Assembly: GCF_013122565.1 (NCBI RefSeq)
Contig: NZ_CP053258.1
Direction: 5' to 3' (one strand)
DNA length: 64,000 bases
Origin: Escherichia coli
GTDB lineage: Bacteria > Pseudomonadota > Gammaproteobacteria > Enterobacterales > Enterobacteriaceae
Shown: in pieces, positions 165 to 47,638 of the stretch
Position numbering within the stretch: the first letter of the stretch is position 1
Layout: each line of letters begins with the position of its first letter
Program-made: the position numbers and the translations under genes
Notes under the pieces: model-generated
What the model was told of the DNA's origin: nothing
Seen by the model: the letters and a program-made list of their open reading frames with translations, nothing else
Databases searched by the model: none

Positions 165-950
165 GTGGTTCTTATGTCCGAAACAAAAAACGAACTTGAA
201 GACCTGCTGGAAAAAGCAGCAACCGAACCGGCTCACCGCCCGGCCTTTTTCCGTACTCTACTGGAATCCACCGTCTGGGTGCCGGGTACGGCGGCGCAGG
301 GCGAGGCAGTAGTTGAAGATAGCGCGCTTGATTTACAGCACTGGGAAAAAGAAGATGGCACCAGCGTCATTCCTTTTTTTACCTCGTTAGAAGCACTTCA
401 ACAGGCGGTTGAAGACGAACAGGCATTTGTCGTAATGCCCGTTCGCACATTGTTTGAGATGACCCTTGGTGAAACGCTCTTCCTTAATGCCAAACTGCCA
501 ACCGGTAAAGAGTTTATGCCGCGTGAAATCAGTTTGTTGATTGGTGAAGAAGGGAGTCCGCTGAGTAGTCAGGAAGTACTGGAAGGCGGTGAATCGCTGA
601 TATTATCGGAAGTCGCAGAGCCGCCAGCACAAATGATTGATTCACTCACCACCTTATTTAAAACCATTAAGCCAGTGAAGCGTGCTTTTATTTGTTCAAT
701 TAAAGAGAACGAAGAGGCACAGCCTAATTTACTTATTGGCATTGAAGCCGATGGTGATATCGAAGAAATTATTCAGGCGGCGGGAAGTGTAGCGACCGAT
801 ACATTACCTGGCGATGAACCAATCGATATTTGTCAGGTGAAAAAAGGGGAAAAAGGAATTAGCCACTTTATTACCGAACATATTGCGCCATTCTATGAAC
901 GTCGCTGGGGTGGTTTTTTGCGTGACTTTAAACAGAATCGGATAATCTAA
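165..950 (+). CDS. sseB: SseB (enhanced serine sensitivity protein)
   Basis: ORF track 261 aa; track start is GTG at 165, an in-frame ATG at 174 (MSETKNE..., 258 aa) is the more likely start; position next to sseA as in E. coli. Confidence 0.9.
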   Translation: MVLMSETKNELEDLLEKAATEPAHRPAFFRTLLESTVWVPGTAAQGEAVVEDSALDLQHWEKEDGTSVIPFFTSLEALQQAVEDEQAFVVMPVRTLFEMTLGETLFLNAKLPTGKEFMPREISLLIGEEGSPLSSQEVLEGGESLILSEVAEPPAQMIDSLTTLFKTIKPVKRAFICSIKENEEAQPNLLIGIEADGDIEEIIQAAGSVATDTLPGDEPIDICQVKKGEKGISHFITEHIAPFYERRWGGFLRDFKQNRII

Positions 951-1330: not shown

Positions 1331-1428
1331 CGCTGAGACGCGCTTGCATTACTACGGTAATACAACCTGCTGGAAAGGCCGCGAACCAAACCGGCAACAA
1401 ATAGCCGCCTGATTTTGGCGGTTTTTTG
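1331..1428 (+). ncRNA. Candidate ~100-nt antisense-type sRNA, copy 1 (TimR/RyfB-like antitoxin RNA)
   Basis: Predicted start just after the promoter; 5' 17 nt cgctgagacgcgcttgc identical to 1171-1187 in the ryfA leader; ends at hairpin plus T-run at about 1405-1428. Confidence 0.4.
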
Positions 1429-2008: not shown

Positions 2009-2110
2009 GCTGTGAAGCACCTGCGTTGCTCATGCAACACAAGTCAATCTGCTGGAGAGGCCGCGAACCAAACCGGCAACAAATAACCGCCTGATCTTGG
2101 CGGTTTTTTG
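2009..2110 (+). ncRNA. Candidate antisense-type sRNA, copy 2
   Basis: 5' region gctgtgaagcacctgcgtt matches 1849-1868 with two A-to-G differences that would give G-U pairs; hairpin plus T-run terminator at about 2085-2110. Confidence 0.4.
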
Positions 2111-2612: not shown

Positions 2613-2658
2613 TTAAGAATAATACTCTCATGTTTGAATAATTACTCTGTTTATTATC

Positions 2659-2687
2659 TTGACATGGCCAGGCATAAAAGAGAGTAT
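2659..2687 (+). promoter_or_regulatory. Candidate promoter for + strand sRNA, copy 3 (TTGACA-17-GAGTAT)
   Basis: Hexamers and 17-nt spacing kept although spacer and upstream palindrome have diverged. Confidence 0.4.
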
Positions 2688-2692
2688 TTCAA

Positions 2693-2795
2693 CACTGTGG
2701 GGTGCCTGCGTTGCTCCGGCAACACAAGCCAACCTGCTGGAAAGGCCGCGAACCAGACCAGCAATAAAAAACCGCCAAATTCGGCGGTTTTTTAT
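2693..2795 (+). ncRNA. Candidate antisense-type sRNA, copy 3
   Basis: 5' cactgtggggtgcctg identical to 2531-2546 in the ryfA-3 leader; ends at terminator 2768-2797. Confidence 0.4.
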
Positions 2796-2800
2796 TGCCT
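2766..2800. terminator. Bidirectional intrinsic terminator between sRNA copy 3 (+) and sseA (-)
   Basis: caataaaaaaccgccaaattcggcggttttttattg: GC stem flanked by A-run and T-run. Confidence 0.6.
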
Positions 2801-2809
2801 GTAAAAAGC

Positions 2810-3655
2810 TTATTTCACTGGCTCAACCGGTAAATCTGCCCGCGCGCCCCATTCACTCCATGCGCCGTCGTACAGTTTCACGTTTGGCACATCCAGCGTC
2901 GCGAGTGCCAACAAAACCACGGCTGCTGTTACACCAGAGCCGCAGCTGACGATAATCGGTTTGTCATAGCTGACGCCGCGACCAAAAAATATCGCATCCA
3001 GTTCATCGGTCGTTTTTAGTTCGCCTTCGCGCACCAGTTCCGTCCACGGAACGTTCAATGCACCGGGAATATGTCCGCGACGTAAACCTGGGCGAGGTTC
3101 ATCAACTTCTGCGTTAAAACGTGCAGCCGGGCGGGCATCAACAATTTGCGCCGTATTTTCATGGCTTGCCAATAATACATCGGTTACTTTCACCACGGCT
3201 TCAGGATTAAACGCGGCGTTAAACTCTCCTTCCGGCAGCTCTACTGCACCTTCTTCTAACAACAGATCATCGCGCTGCCAGCCTGCAAGTCCACCCCCCA
3301 GAATCGACACTTTCTCTACACCAAAGGTGCGCAGCATCCACCATGCTCGTGGGGCTGAGAAAAGATTACCTTCGTCATAGACAATCAGGTGCTTATCCTG
3401 GTTAACGCCTAATTCACGCATTGCCACGGCGAACGTTTCCGGGCGCGGCAGCATGTGCGGAAGCGGGGAAGTGTGATCAGAAAGCGCTTCGATATCAAAA
3501 AACACTGCGCCGGGAATATGTCCATTCAGATACTCCTGAGCAACGTTACGATCTTCCTGTCCAGGCGACGCCATGCGGGCATCGATAATCTGAATTTCCG
3601 GGTCATCAATATGTTCGGCGAGCCAGTCGGCTCCTACAAACCATGTCGTGGACAT
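2810..3655 (-). CDS. sseA: 3-mercaptopyruvate sulfurtransferase (rhodanese family)
   Basis: 281 aa from ATG at 3655 (MSTTWFVGADWLAEH...); track ORF extends further upstream; active-site CGSGVTA. Confidence 0.93.
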   Translation of the reverse strand: MSTTWFVGADWLAEHIDDPEIQIIDARMASPGQEDRNVAQEYLNGHIPGAVFFDIEALSDHTSPLPHMLPRPETFAVAMRELGVNQDKHLIVYDEGNLFSAPRAWWMLRTFGVEKVSILGGGLAGWQRDDLLLEEGAVELPEGEFNAAFNPEAVVKVTDVLLASHENTAQIVDARPAARFNAEVDEPRPGLRRGHIPGALNVPWTELVREGELKTTDELDAIFFGRGVSYDKPIIVSCGSGVTAAVVLLALATLDVPNVKLYDGAWSEWGARADLPVEPVK

Positions 3656-3861: not shown

Positions 3862-6800
3862 ATGAAAAAGTTACGCTTAGCCGCCTGCATGCTAATGCTG
3901 GCGCTGGCAGGGTGCGACAACAACGATAACGCGCCAACAGCGGTGAAAAAAGATGCGCCTTCTGAAGTTACTAAAGCGGCCTCTTCAGAAAACGCGAGTT
4001 CAGCAAAACTCTCCGCGCCAGAGCGACAAAAACTGGCACAACAGAGTGCCGGTAAGGCGCTGACATTGCTGGATCTCGCTGAAGTCCAACTTGATGGTGC
4101 AGCCACGCTGGTGCTGACGTTCTCCATCCCTCTCGACCCGGATCAGGATTTCTCACGCGTTATTCATGTCGTCGATAAAAAAAGCGGCAAAGTGGATGGT
4201 GCCTGGGAGCTGTCAGATAATCTTAAAGAGCTGCGTTTACGCCACCTCGAACCGAAACGTGATTTGATCGTTACTATTGGCAAGGAGGTCAAAGCACTCA
4301 ACAACGCAACCTTCAGTAAAGATTACGAAAAAACTATAACTACCCGCGACATCCAACCCAGCGTCGGTTTTGCCAGCCGTGGTTCGCTGCTGCCTGGTAA
4401 AGTCGTTGAAGGGCTGCCGGTAATGGCGCTCAACGTTAATAATGTCGATGTTAACTTCTTCCGCGTTAAGCCAGAATCTCTGCCAGCATTCATTAGCCAA
4501 TGGGAATACCGCAATTCGCTGGCGAACTGGCAGTCAGACAAACTGCTGCAGATGGCGGATCTGGTCTACACCGGACGGTTTGATCTCAATCCTGCGCGTA
4601 ACACCCGTGAAAAATTATTGCTGCCGCTGGGCGATATCAAACCGCTTCAGCAGGCGGGCGTGTATCTGGCTGTGATGAATCAGGCTGGACGTTACGATTA
4701 CAGTAATCCCGCGACGCTGTTTACGTTAAGTGATATCGGCGTTTCAGCTCACCGTTATCACAATCGTCTGGATATCTTTACCCAAAGTCTGGAAAACGGC
4801 GCGGCCCAGCAAGGAATTGAAGTCTCTTTATTAAATGAGAAAGGGCAGACTCTGACTCAGGCAACAAGTGACGCTCAGGGGCATGTGCAGCTGGAAAATG
4901 ATAAAAATGCGGCATTACTGCTGGCACGTAAAGACGGTCAGACAACGCTACTCGATTTAAAACTTCCGGCGCTGGACTTAGCAGAATTTAACATTGCTGG
5001 CGCGCCAGGCTATAGCAAACAGTTTTTCATGTTTGGCCCGCGCGATCTTTATCGCCCAGGTGAAACGGTCATCCTCAATGGTTTGCTGCGTGATGCAGAC
5101 GGTAAAGCGTTGCCCGATCAACCCATCAAGTTAGACGTGATTAAACCCGACGGGCAGGTACTCAGGAGCGTCGTTAGTCAGCCGGAGAATGGCCTCTACC
5201 ACTTAACCTGGCCACTCGATAGCAATGCGGCAACCGGTATGTGGCATATTCGCGCTAACACGGGCGATAACCAGTATCGGATGTGGGATTTCCACGTCGA
5301 AGATTTTATGCCAGAGCGCATGGCGCTGAATCTGACCGGTGAGAAAACCCCGCTTATGCCGAAAGATGAAGTGAAATTCTCCGTGGTGGGGTACTACCTG
5401 TACGGTGCACCTGCTAATGGTAATACTTTGCAAGGGCAACTTTTCCTGCGCCCACTGCGTGACGCTGTGTCAGCCTTACCTGGTTTTGAATTCGGCGATA
5501 TAGCTGCCGAAAACCTTTCCCGCACGCTGGATGAAGTTCAGTTGACGCTGGATGATAAAGGGCGCGGCGAAGTTTCTACAGAAAGCCAGTGGAAGGAAAC
5601 GCATTCCCCATTACAGGTTATTTTCCAGGGTAGTTTGCTGGAATCGGGCGGTCGCCCGGTGACGCGCCGCGCTGAGCAGGCTATCTGGCCTGCCGATGCA
5701 TTGCCGGGGATCCGTCCGCAGTTCGCCTCGAAATCGGTTTACGATTATCGCACTGACAGCACGGTGAAACAGCTCATTGTTGATGAAGGCAGTAACGCCG
5801 CTTTTGACATCGTTTATAGCGATGCGCAAGGCGTGAAAAAAGCTGTGTCGGGCTTGCAAGTGCGCCTGATTCGCGAACGCCGTGATTACTACTGGAACTG
5901 GTCAGAAGATGAAGGCTGGCAGTCACAGTTTGATCAAAAAGATCTGATCGAAAATGAACAAACTCTGGATCTTCAGGCGGATGAAACCGGTAAGGTCAGT
6001 TTCCCGGTAGAGTGGGGCGCTTATCGTCTGGAAGTCAAAGCGCCGAATGAAGCGGTCAGTAGCGTGCGTTTCTGGGCTGGCTATAGCTGGCAGGACAACA
6101 GCGACGGGAGCGGTACCGTGCGACCCGACCGTGTCACGCTGAAACTGGATAAAGCCAGTTATCGCCCTGGCGATACCATCAAGTTGCATATTGCCGCGCC
6201 AACGGCGGGTAAAGGTTATGCGATGGTCGAGTCCAGTGAAGGGCCGCTGTGGTGGCAAGAGATTGATGTTCCGGCTCAAGGGCTAGATCTGACGATTCCG
6301 GTCGATAAAACCTGGCATCGTCATGATCTGTATTTAAGTACACTGGTGGTACGTCCTGGCGATAAATCTCGCTCCGCGACGCCAAAACGCGCGGTTGGGG
6401 TGTTGCATCTTCCGCTTGGTGATGAAAACCGTCGCCTCGATCTGGCGCTGGAAACACCAGCAAAAATGCGTCCCAATCAGCCATTAACCGTGAAAATTAA
6501 AGCCAGCAATAAAAATGGTGAGATGCCAAAACAGGTGAATGTGCTGGTGTCTGCCGTTGATAGCGGTGTGCTGAATATTACTGACTACGTTACCCCCGAT
6601 CCGTGGCAGGCGTTCTTTGGTCAGAAACGCTATGGTGCAGACATTTACGATATTTACGGTCAGGTCATTGAAGGTCAGGGGCGTCTGGCAGCTCTGCGTT
6701 TTGGTGGCGATGGTGATGAGCTGAAACGTGGTGGTAAACCGCCGGTCAATCACGTCAATATTGTCGCGCAGCAGGCGCTGCCGGTAACGCTCAATGAACA

Positions 6801-8823
6801 GGGCGAAGGCTCGGTTACACTGCCAATTGGCGATTTTAACGGTGAATTACGCGTCATGGCGCAAGCCTGGACGGCAGATGACTTCGGTAGCAACGAAAGC
6901 AAAGTGATAGTTGCCGCACCGGTGATTGCTGAACTGAACATGCCGCGCTTTATGGCGAGTGGCGATACCTCGCGTCTGACGCTGGATATCACTAATCTTA
7001 CCGATAAACCGCAAAAACTGAACGTTGCCCTGACCGCCAGTGGTTTGCTTGAACTGGTCAGCGATTCACCCGCAGCCGTTGAATTAGCGCCAGGTGTGCG
7101 TACTACGCTGTTTATCCCGGTGCGAGCATTGCCGGGTTATGGCGATGGAGAAATTCAGGCCACCATTAGCGGGTTAGCGTTACCGGGTGAAACCGTTGCC
7201 GATCAGCATAAGCAGTGGAAAATCGGCGTCCGTCCGGCGTTCCCGGCACAAACGGTTAATGACGGTACGGCGTTGCAGCCTGGTGAGTCATGGGCGATTC
7301 CGGCGGATGGATTGCAAAACTTCTCGCCTGTTACGCTGGAAGGGCAATTGTTGTTGAGCGGCAAACCACCGCTGAACATCGCACGTTATATCAAAGAGTT
7401 AAAAGCGTATCCGTACGGCTGTCTCGAGCAAACCGCCAGCGGCCTGTTCCCGTCACTTTATACCAACGCAGCCCAACTGCAGGCGTTGGGCATCAAAGGC
7501 GACAGTGATGAGAAACGCCGTGCATCGGTCGATATCGGCATTTCCCGTTTGCTGCAAATGCAACGTGATAACGGCGGCTTTGCGCTGTGGGATAAAAACG
7601 GTGACGAAGAGTACTGGCTGACGGCTTACGTGATGGATTTCCTGGTCCGCGCAGGCGAACAGGGTTACAGCGTGCCGACAGACGCCATTAACCGGGGTAA
7701 TGAGCGTCTGCTGCGCTATTTACAAGATCCGGGCATGATGTCGATCCCGTACGCGGATAATCTCAAAGCCAGTAAATTCGCCGTACAGTCTTACGCTGCG
7801 CTGGTGTTGGCCCGTCAGCAAAAGGCTCCACTGGGTGCGCTGCGTGAAATCTGGGAGCATCGTGCAGATGCCGCTTCTGGTTTACCGCTGCTGCAACTTG
7901 GCGTTGCGCTGAAAACCATGGGTGATGCAACGCGTGGTGAAGAAGCGATTGTGCTGGCGCTGAAAACGCAGAGAAATAGTGATGAGCGGATATGGCTGGG
8001 TGATTACGGTAGTCCACTGCGCGACAACGCGTTAATGCTCTCCTTGCTGGAAGAAAATAAACTGCTACCCGATGAGCAGTACACTTTGCTGAACACACTT
8101 TCGCAGCAGGCGTTTGGTGAACGCTGGCTATCGACGCAGGAAAGTAACGCGTTGTTCCTGGCTGCCCGTACGATTCAGGATTTACCGGGTAAATGGCAGG
8201 CGCAAACCTCTTTCTCATCTGAGCCGCTGATAGGCGAGAAAGCGCAAAACAGCACTCTGAATAGCGATCAACTTGCCACCTTGCAGGTGACCAACAGTGG
8301 CGATCAGCCGTTATGGCTGCGTGTGGATGCCAGCGGTTATCCGCAATCCGCACCTTTACCGGCGAACAATGTGCTGCAAATCGAGCGTCATATTCTTGGT
8401 ACTGATGGTAAGAGCAAATCGCTGGACTCGTTACGTAGCGGCGATCTGGTGCTGGTCTGGTTGCAGGTAAAAGCCAGTAACAGCGTGCCAGATGCGTTAG
8501 TCGTGGATTTGCTGCCTGCGGGTCTGGAACTGGAAAACCAGAATCTGGCGAACGGTAGCGCCAGCCTGGAGCAAAGTGGTGGCGAAGTGCAAAACTTACT
8601 GAACCAGATGCAGCAGGCGAGTATTAAGCACATTGAGTTCCGTGACGATCGCTTTGTGGCGGCGGTTGCCGTTGATGAATACCAACCGGTAACGCTGGTG
8701 TATCTGGCGCGGGCGGTGACGCCGGGAACGTATCAGGTACCGCAACCGATGGTGGAATCAATGTATGTTCCCCAATGGCGGGCGACTGGCGCGGCTGAAG
8801 ATCTGCTGATTGTCAGACCGTAA
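3862..8823 (+). CDS. yfhM: Alpha-2-macroglobulin-family lipoprotein
   Basis: 1653 aa; lipoprotein signal LALAGC; thioester motif CLEQ (YGCLEQTAS); adjacent to pbpC. Confidence 0.95.
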   Translation: MKKLRLAACMLMLALAGCDNNDNAPTAVKKDAPSEVTKAASSENASSAKLSAPERQKLAQQSAGKALTLLDLAEVQLDGAATLVLTFSIPLDPDQDFSRVIHVVDKKSGKVDGAWELSDNLKELRLRHLEPKRDLIVTIGKEVKALNNATFSKDYEKTITTRDIQPSVGFASRGSLLPGKVVEGLPVMALNVNNVDVNFFRVKPESLPAFISQWEYRNSLANWQSDKLLQMADLVYTGRFDLNPARNTREKLLLPLGDIKPLQQAGVYLAVMNQAGRYDYSNPATLFTLSDIGVSAHRYHNRLDIFTQSLENGAAQQGIEVSLLNEKGQTLTQATSDAQGHVQLENDKNAALLLARKDGQTTLLDLKLPALDLAEFNIAGAPGYSKQFFMFGPRDLYRPGETVILNGLLRDADGKALPDQPIKLDVIKPDGQVLRSVVSQPENGLYHLTWPLDSNAATGMWHIRANTGDNQYRMWDFHVEDFMPERMALNLTGEKTPLMPKDEVKFSVVGYYLYGAPANGNTLQGQLFLRPLRDAVSALPGFEFGDIAAENLSRTLDEVQLTLDDKGRGEVSTESQWKETHSPLQVIFQGSLLESGGRPVTRRAEQAIWPADALPGIRPQFASKSVYDYRTDSTVKQLIVDEGSNAAFDIVYSDAQGVKKAVSGLQVRLIRERRDYYWNWSEDEGWQSQFDQKDLIENEQTLDLQADETGKVSFPVEWGAYRLEVKAPNEAVSSVRFWAGYSWQDNSDGSGTVRPDRVTLKLDKASYRPGDTIKLHIAAPTAGKGYAMVESSEGPLWWQEIDVPAQGLDLTIPVDKTWHRHDLYLSTLVVRPGDKSRSATPKRAVGVLHLPLGDENRRLDLALETPAKMRPNQPLTVKIKASNKNGEMPKQVNVLVSAVDSGVLNITDYVTPDPWQAFFGQKRYGADIYDIYGQVIEGQGRLAALRFGGDGDELKRGGKPPVNHVNIVAQQALPVTLNEQGEGSVTLPIGDFNGELRVMAQAWTADDFGSNESKVIVAAPVIAELNMPRFMASGDTSRLTLDITNLTDKPQKLNVALTASGLLELVSDSPAAVELAPGVRTTLFIPVRALPGYGDGEIQATISGLALPGETVADQHKQWKIGVRPAFPAQTVNDGTALQPGESWAIPADGLQNFSPVTLEGQLLLSGKPPLNIARYIKELKAYPYGCLEQTASGLFPSLYTNAAQLQALGIKGDSDEKRRASVDIGISRLLQMQRDNGGFALWDKNGDEEYWLTAYVMDFLVRAGEQGYSVPTDAINRGNERLLRYLQDPGMMSIPYADNLKASKFAVQSYAALVLARQQKAPLGALREIWEHRADAASGLPLLQLGVALKTMGDATRGEEAIVLALKTQRNSDERIWLGDYGSPLRDNALMLSLLEENKLLPDEQYTLLNTLSQQAFGERWLSTQESNALFLAARTIQDLPGKWQAQTSFSSEPLIGEKAQNSTLNSDQLATLQVTNSGDQPLWLRVDASGYPQSAPLPANNVLQIERHILGTDGKSKSLDSLRSGDLVLVWLQVKASNSVPDALVVDLLPAGLELENQNLANGSASLEQSGGEVQNLLNQMQQASIKHIEFRDDRFVAAVAVDEYQPVTLVYLARAVTPGTYQVPQPMVESMYVPQWRATGAAEDLLIVRP

Positions 8824-23974: not shown

Positions 23975-24094
23975 CACTTGCTCAACAGCATTCCCGCAAG
24001 GGAATGCTGTTTCCGCATATTTTGCTTAATCCAGGATTAAGCAAAATATGTTGATGCGGTAACCGTTCGTTAAATAACTGGTGGAGTTCTTTTC

Positions 24095-36903: not shown

Positions 36904-36933
36904 CAAAACCCTCTGTTACTACAGAGGGTTTTT
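36904..36933. terminator. Bidirectional terminator between guaA (+) and yfgI (-)
   Basis: aaaaccctctgttactacagagggtttttt. Confidence 0.65.
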
Positions 36934-41143: not shown

Positions 41144-41148
41144 ATAAT

Positions 41149-41175
41149 GCGGGCCGACATTTCTCGTCGGCCCGC
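41149..41175. terminator. Bidirectional hairpin between pdeF (+) and ppx (-)
   Basis: gcgggccgacatttctcgtcggcccgc, 10-bp perfect stem. Confidence 0.5.
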
Positions 41176-41181
41176 AAAGCA

Positions 41182-47592: not shown

Positions 47593-47608
47593 AGAATAAA
47601 AATAATTA

Positions 47609-47638
47609 AAGCCGACTTTAAGAGTCGGCTTTTTTTTG
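47609..47638 (+). terminator. Hairpin plus T-run between upp and uraA (terminator/attenuator)
   Basis: aagccgactttaagagtcggctttttttt. Confidence 0.6.

Follow-up and report, generated by a model that had tools for sequence, protein, structure and literature searches.

The palindrome at positions 2761–2798 of the window (the whole stretch of Escherichia coli DNA that we analysed, 64,000 nucleotides) is, with high probability, a canonical bidirectional intrinsic (Rho-independent) terminator common to two convergent transcription units, a TimR-like antitoxin small RNA (sRNA) on the plus strand and sseA on the minus strand. It has the sequence and structure of such a terminator, scores as one on both strands, and in E. 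coli K-12 the identical hairpin carries RNA 3′ ends on both strands. The element is already known, being the annotated 3′ end of timR and mapped in K-12, and is nothing new in kind. Feature coordinates are given in Table 1.

Table 1. Features at and around the hairpin beside sseA, in window coordinates
Feature	Position	Strand	Basis and remarks
Terminator hairpin, GC core	CCGCC 2772–2776 / GGCGG 2783–2787	both	sequence
Terminator hairpin, loop aaattc	2777–2782		sequence
Terminator hairpin, A6 and T6 runs	A6 2766–2771, T6 2788–2793		sequence
TimR-like antitoxin sRNA, unit 3 (putative, ~103 nt)	2694–2796	+	5′ end predicted; 3′ end predicted from K-12 Term-seq
Putative sigma-70 promoter, TimR unit 3	2659–2687	+	TTGACA 2659–2664, spacer 17 nt, GAGTAT 2682–2687; read from sequence
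sseA (3-mercaptopyruvate sulfurtransferase) CDS	2810–3655	−	ORF list; RefSeq annotation at orthologous loci
Predicted sseA 3′ UTR, 45 nt, ending ...GGCGGUUUUUUA	2765–2809	−	K-12 terminus 2653384 (+) mapped to 2765
ryfA/timP mRNA, unit 3 (timP ORF 2342–2467)	2309–2613	−	Rfam RF00126, 324.1 bits, E 1.4e-90; TimP annotation at orthologous loci
ryfA (RF00126), three units	949–1253, 1627–1931, 2309–2613	−	Rfam, 314–324 bits
Seed/target pair, unit 1	1170–1190/1331–1347		GCTGAGACGCGCTTGC
Seed/target pair, unit 2	1850–1866/2009–2025		GCTGTGAA[A/G]CACCTGC
Seed/target pair, unit 3	2531–2546/2694–2708		CACTGTGGGGTGCCTG
TimR-like terminator hairpin, unit 1	1394–1432, core 1405–1421	+	5′ flank AAATAG; score +24.8 (+), −43.3 (−)
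TimR-like terminator hairpin, unit 2	2076–2114, core 2087–2103	+	5′ flank AAATAA; score +20.8 (+), −12.6 (−)
IS128, full-length matches	1385–1595, 2067–2277	−	Rfam, 203 and 225 bits
sseB	165–950	+	neighbour upstream of the tandem units
yfhM	3862–8823	+	neighbour past sseA

The palindrome is perfect, with 16-bp arms around a 6-nt loop (gcaataaaaaaccgcc / aaattc / ggcggttttttattgc). A preliminary description of this DNA had placed a symmetric A-run/hairpin/T-run between the last ryfA module and sseA, and this is borne out: the string quoted there, caataaaaaaccgccaaattcggcggttttttattg, lies at 2762–2797, and adding the outer g/c pair gives the full palindrome. The CCGCC/GGCGG core, lengthened to 16 bp, supplies the GC-rich stem-loop of an intrinsic terminator, and UUUUUUAUUG stands directly 3′ of this core on both strands as the U-tract. 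With A6 on the 5′ side and T6 on the 3′ side of a single hairpin, the element has the A-tract/GC hairpin/T-tract arrangement by which a bidirectional terminator is defined (bioRxiv 10.1101/2024.07.17.603904). Folded as RNA, it reaches −25.6 kcal/mol (z −7.30) on the plus strand and −27.3 kcal/mol (z −7.27) on the minus strand, and none of 200 dinucleotide shuffles folded as well on either strand. Only eight distinct perfect hairpins (arms of at least 10 bp, loops of 3–8 nt) were found in the 64-kb window, while the same scan of five base-shuffled copies gave none or one each; the arms of 2761–2798 are the joint longest of the eight.

Among the other perfect hairpins of the window, those at 23984–24011 and 24016–24050 are two neighbouring palindromes, and a further one lies at 41148–41176. 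Two have A/T flanks and resemble other two-way terminators, namely 36905–36932 (aaaaccctctg...cagagggtttt) and 47608–47632 (aaagccgact...agtcggcttt).

Terminators were scored with a d'Aubenton-Carafa-type discriminant, in our own re-implementation with modern ViennaRNA energies, in which a value above zero denotes a terminator. The sseA-adjacent hairpin scored +22.3 on the plus strand and +24.1 on the minus strand, and the maximum over 300 random 62-nt segments of the window was −3.2. The preliminary claim that the hairpin can end both the plus-strand RNA of unit 3 and the sseA transcript therefore agrees with these scores, as it does with the K-12 3′ ends described below. A simple terminator scan listed 2761–2798 on neither strand. 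In our reading this is because the stem is prolonged through the A and T runs, leaving no T-tail, and the omission is a limitation of the tool and no counter-evidence to the hairpin. Rfam searches at permissive E-values returned partial matches of the hairpin to IS128, RNAI, Leu leader, rimP and others, all of them below the gathering thresholds, and none was accepted.

The window carries three tandem units of ~680 bp each between sseB and sseA (880–2830). Each comprises ryfA/timP on the minus strand, a TimR-like sRNA on the plus strand, an AT-rich spacer of ~130 bp and a 66–87-nt piece duplicated from the 3′ end of sseB along with its hairpin. RefSeq annotation of related genomes places a 41-codon timP ORF within each ryfA. 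The plus strand of every unit holds a ~100-nt RNA gene divergent from ryfA, with a TTGACA-17 nt-GAGTAT promoter and a CCGCC...GGCGG hairpin and T-run at its end; units 1 and 2 repeat the two hexamers of unit 3 at the same spacing, as does the sequence ahead of timR in K-12. At the sseA end of the array, TimR unit 3 (+) and sseA (−) converge on the hairpin, with 11 nt between the sseA stop codon (last base 2810) and the stem. The sseA gene of the window is 97–99% identical to other E. coli copies. Two mechanical ORFs that run over the hairpin, 2634–2804 (+) and 2659–2949 (+), are unsupported and were set aside.

Several further features of the array were observed. Most complete E. coli genomes typically have one or two units, and the nearest three-unit genome, that of strain MEW, is merely 96% identical across 2 kb. 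Units 1 and 2 have perfect palindromes of 10–12 bp (taactctctttt-GCTTGACA-aaaagagagtta) across the region of the divergent ryfA and TimR promoters (1282–1313 and 1962–1989), with the −35 TTGACA inside the loop; the version in unit 3 has diverged. Between sseB (+) and ryfA unit 1 (−), at 954–975, lies another shared hairpin, ATGCCGCCC-TAAA-GGGCGGCAT, which has terminator scores of +3.1 (+) and +10.6 (−) and recurs at 1632–1653 and 2314–2335; the copies in units 2 and 3 move together with the sseB fragment. In K-12, the 3′ termini of sseB (2654130, −) and ryfA/timP (2654160, +) are called at a hairpin of this type in the TRS data (PMC10687069). Upstream of sseB, a REP-like sequence at 11–139 gives sub-threshold Rfam matches to naRNA4 (40.3 bits) and ES036 (28.9 bits).

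Judged by its position and pairing potential, the plus-strand RNA ended by the hairpin is an antitoxin sRNA of the TimR/RyfB type, belonging to the third timP(ryfA)/timR module. Every timP in enterobacteria is flanked by a TimR-like RNA and then an intrinsic terminator (PMC7667032), and S. dysenteriae has RyfB1 and RyfB2, ~100-nt transcripts divergent to each ryfA (PMC5333039). Salmonella TimR represses TimP translation (PMC7667032), and RyfB1 acts on RyfA1 levels (PMC5333039). In the window, the putative TimR of unit 3 (2659–2796 with its promoter) is encoded divergently just upstream of its ryfA. The first 15 nt of this RNA are a perfect complement to the ryfA mRNA of unit 3, and match units 1 and 2 over at most 8 nt. 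The 5′ end of TimR unit 1 is complementary to the variable part of its own ryfA over 17 nt; for unit 2, the match read by eye is 17 nt with one mismatch, the longest computed perfect run being 8 nt. Non-cognate TimR/ryfA pairs across units share no more than 8 nt of complementarity. As each unit has its own seed/target pair, TimR and ryfA co-vary unit by unit, and the ryfA/timP mRNA of unit 3 is the predicted target of TimR unit 3.

Rfam describes IS128 (RF00125) as a predicted sRNA of the sseA–sseB intergenic region. At 2761–2798, only part of the model matches, with 28.4 bits (−) and 25.4 bits (+), below the gathering threshold of 80 bits; each of the full-length matches (Table 1) takes in an internal TimR hairpin together with the AT-rich spacer and the fragment of the sseB 3′ end. 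K-12 has a single mapped 3′ end at the IS128 hairpin, and it lies on the strand opposite to the annotated IS128 (PMC7815308); hence the RNA detected there is the TimR-like one. IS128 may thus be a TimR-like terminator read backwards.

The internal hairpins of units 1 and 2 had been described as lacking the upstream A-run, which would leave only the sseA-adjacent copy bidirectional. Strictly, their 5′ flanks (caacaaatagCCGCC in unit 1, caacaaataaCCGCC in unit 2) have no A6, but the run is broken and not missing: at the third position 5′ of the core, T replaces A (AAATAG in unit 1, AAATAA in unit 2), and otherwise the same 16-bp extended helix is present. This A-to-T change amounts to a U-U mismatch in the plus-strand hairpin and a broken U-tract for minus-strand transcripts. 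The unit 1 hairpin folds at −22.3 (+) and −15.4 (−), that of unit 2 at −24.8 (+) and −22.6 (−). By score, the two are terminators on the plus strand only (Table 1), in keeping with the preliminary claim; against it, the loosest consensus scan flags both on the minus strand too, and in two strains, K-12 and E300010, the internal copy has an intact A6, with a minus-strand score of +16.5. That only the sseA-adjacent copy is bidirectional therefore seems a fair statement for this window, but it is no universal rule for internal copies.

We tallied the A-run over the window and 31 Escherichia loci, with the hairpin present in 23. A search with the TimP protein reached only Escherichia and Shigella, and the comparison covers Escherichia loci; the proximal tally includes one low-quality entry, S. 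flexneri, where the hairpin is present in a noisy assembly with indels (L014). A6 is intact in all 22 sseA-proximal hairpins vs 2 of the 14 internal ones (Fisher p = 7e-8 over instances and 7e-4 over distinct sequences, the samples being phylogenetically non-independent). The 12 internal copies with the U-U mismatch keep plus-strand scores of +20.8 to +32.4. In the outer stem of the aligned copies, a compensatory exchange of U-A to C-G maintains the helix, and 95.5% of cells are paired. Of 5426 complete E. coli genomes, 5388 carry the 86-nt junction of hairpin and sseA at an identity of 95% or more, with a median of one site per genome, and the matches listed overlap the sseA annotation.

Two E. 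coli loci depart from this pattern in other ways. Strain E300010 (L009, ~1905–2600) has an element of the IS200/IS605 family (tnpA) in place of the sseA-proximal hairpin core, and the terminal hairpins of this element now flank TimR and sseA. In strain TUM18780 (L005, 2813–2860), a 17-nt slippage duplication has left two copies of ttcggcggttttttat within the 3′ arm of the hairpin beside sseA.

The A-run might have been conserved for TimR itself, through a longer A-U stem that serves termination efficiency or RNA stability, or as a site for a 3′-end-binding chaperone, and not as the U-tract of sseA. Consistent with this, the whole 16-bp helix is conserved, with its compensatory change, in proximal and internal copies alike, and the internal copy of K-12 has an intact A6 with no convergent gene, its 3′ end being the strongest that Term-seq shows at the locus. 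We nevertheless regard this explanation as unlikely, given that the internal copies bear the mismatch at precisely this place in 12 of 14 cases with plus-strand scores that stay high, so that TimR termination is seemingly independent of an intact A-run, and that the sseA-facing copy alone never loses A6.

In E. coli K-12 MG1655 the identical 38 nt lie at 2653351–2653388, likewise 11 nt past the sseA stop. RefSeq has timR (b4811) at 2653356–2653455 (−), with its 3′ end in the T-run, and the end of sseA (b2521) at 2653339 (+). By Term-seq, Adams et al. (2021) mapped a 3′ end at 2653354 (−), exactly this sequence, in one of three conditions (PMC7815308). The TRS re-analysis of the Term-seq data of Dar and Sorek (BW25113, exponential phase, LB; MG1655 coordinates) gives a primary timR terminus at 2653348–2653358 (−), with a dominant position of 2653353 and a signal of 0.998, and a primary sseA terminus at 2653381–2653389 (+), with a dominant position of 2653384 and a signal of 0.819 (PMC10687069). 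The K-12 ends lie 7–9 nt past the stem on both strands, at the U-tracts. The check that had been proposed for this site, 3′ ends on both strands, is thus answered positively at the identical hairpin of K-12/BW25113, the sseA end coming from one data set. All of these ends were mapped in K-12/BW25113 and transferred through the identical 38 nt, and the window strain would be expected to behave in the same way. The termini at 2653354 and 2653353 (−) correspond to window positions 2795 and 2796; they set the predicted 3′ end of TimR unit 3, as the start of b4811, 7 nt past GAGTAT, and its end within the T-run set the predicted limits of that RNA as a whole.

The Term-seq lists curated by Adams et al. 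(three conditions) contain no sseA 3′ end, nor do the TRS calls for matched samples from LB and minimal medium, an absence for which low sseA expression is a possible reason, and the supplements of PMC12207403 and the paper on RyfA/TimR in APEC hold nothing on sseA. Adams et al. also report a region of Rho termination antisense to sseA at K-12 2653187 (−), equivalent to window ~2962 (+) and ~170 nt past the hairpin (PMC7815308), which suggests some read-through of the TimR terminator, with Rho as a backup.

The K-12 locus differs from that of the window. K-12 timR is an orphan copy whose own ryfA is deleted to a short 5′ fragment; the window has a full third timP/timR unit, with another seed sequence in TimR and a few flanking bases changed. 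The K-12 locus (L001, 1857–2300) is a mosaic in which the single ryfA carries a unit-2-type target. The TimR-like copy adjoining this ryfA has a unit-1-type seed, is non-cognate and gives a stronger Term-seq end (2653679, −), and the annotated timR beside sseA is the cognate copy for K-12 ryfA, though without a ryfA of its own.

Term-seq maps stable 3′ ends of any origin, and intrinsic termination and 3′-to-5′ trimming back to a stable hairpin look the same in such data. The hairpin could accordingly be a terminator for TimR only, with the sseA-strand end left by 3′ exonucleases that trim read-through transcripts to the hairpin; of the data sets examined, just one has the sseA end, and its signal there is 0.819 vs 0.998 for timR. 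Set against this are the canonical U6 tract just past the GC stem on the minus strand and the score there of +24.1. The mapped sseA end, 7 nt past the stem, is where intrinsic termination predicts it, and A6 is kept in every sseA-proximal copy and usually broken in internal ones. Trimming as the source of the sseA end is for these reasons quite improbable, and we infer that the ends on both strands arise from intrinsic termination and not from processing.

Convergent units whose 3′ ends overlap by ~32 nt also match the geometry of collision-type terminators, such as that of ynaJ-uspE, in which a hairpin between convergent genes is accompanied by defined 3′ ends on both strands (bioRxiv 10.1101/2022.10.23.513370). 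It is very unlikely, however, that termination here is driven mainly by converging polymerases that meet head-on while held at the hairpin. Terminators of that class reportedly act weakly in either direction alone and do not look like intrinsic ones (bioRxiv 10.1101/2022.10.23.513370), whereas 2761–2798, with canonical U-tracts, is on both strands an intrinsic terminator of the textbook kind, and the near-identical internal TimR hairpins yield strong 3′ ends with no converging gene. A reading in which the palindrome is no terminator but arose by chance or belongs to some mobile or repetitive element (REP, MITE or IS end), as its palindromic nature and the IS200/IS605 insertion in one strain might suggest, is effectively refuted by the shuffles, the base rate of perfect hairpins, the single place beside sseA in each of ~5400 E. 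coli genomes, the homology to other TimR terminators and Rfam matches that are sub-threshold, partial and terminator-like.

With a bidirectional intrinsic terminator as the preferred reading, we propose the following course of events. On the plus strand, TimR unit 3 would start from the promoter at ~2659–2687, the CCGCC/GGCGG stem would form in the nascent RNA, and the polymerase would pause on U6 and release the RNA at ~2795–2796. On the minus strand, the sseA mRNA would pass its stop codon and copy the palindrome, where the A6 run would now encode a U6 tract, and would be released at ~2765 with a 45-nt 3′ UTR. The predicted sseA 3′ UTR and the 3′ end of TimR unit 3 share a complementary overlap of ~32 nt (2765–2796). 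The internal TimR terminators would have kept their plus-strand function with the A-run broken by the A-to-T change, there being no convergent gene in units 1 and 2 in need of minus-strand termination.

Other Escherichia retain or have lost the element. Eight cryptic-clade or unnamed Escherichia loci (sseA ~90–95% identical) have an A6/T6 hairpin beside sseA. In a scan of genome contigs, the pattern GGCCGCGAACCNNACNNGCAANAAANANCCGCC proved too strict and matched one locus only, in Escherichia sp. E1V33. The hairpin is absent from two E. albertii and six E. marmotae assemblies, which read gcaataaaaa(a)/(g)cttat... across a clean 36-nt gap bounded by A5–6 runs; the hairpin-less loci in our set are L012 and L027–L032 for E. 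marmotae and L013, L025 and L026 for E. albertii. As the outer half-arm gcaataaaaaa persists, the palindrome was probably excised in these species and not gained later in E. coli, and their lack of it indicates that the hairpin is not indispensable. E. marmotae has, besides, a fusion of the ryfA target site with the TimR seed that removes both promoters; sseA is then followed on its own strand by timP, 143 nt downstream, and no terminator separates the two.

The value of the element lies mainly in annotation: it marks where the sseA and third TimR transcripts end, and ryfA/timP lies on the strand opposite to the RNA that the preliminary description meant. Only mildly new is the comparative pattern of A-run retention and natural deletion, that is, paralogous terminator copies in one locus whose A-tract is retained only where a convergent gene uses it. 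The locus may be a natural experiment on selection for two-way termination, a speculative proposal that we think rather doubtful. If the hairpin moreover coupled the antitoxin level to sseA expression, such coupling could act through polymerase collisions or through pairing of the 32-nt complementary 3′ ends, and would predict read-through of sseA into the timP region, and of TimR into sseA antisense, in the hairpin-less species. The deletions in E. albertii and E. marmotae, together with the paralogous copies, are ready-made controls for work on bidirectional termination or timPR regulation.

In its general plan, the putative TimR of unit 3 resembles Salmonella TimR and Shigella RyfB1 and RyfB2, which are likewise ~100 nt long, divergent, equipped with a 5′ seed against the 5′ UTR of the cognate ryfA and ended by an intrinsic terminator (PMC7667032, PMC5333039). 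The Salmonella locus differs in having STM2534 between sseA and timP (PMC7667032), and its terminator is therefore presumably not common with sseA. With classical bidirectional intrinsic terminators, the hairpin shares the A6/T6 flanks, the convergent units, the U-tracts on both RNAs and the overlapping, complementary 3′ ends; its sole departure, and nothing essential, is that one partner is a ~100-nt antitoxin sRNA and not an mRNA.
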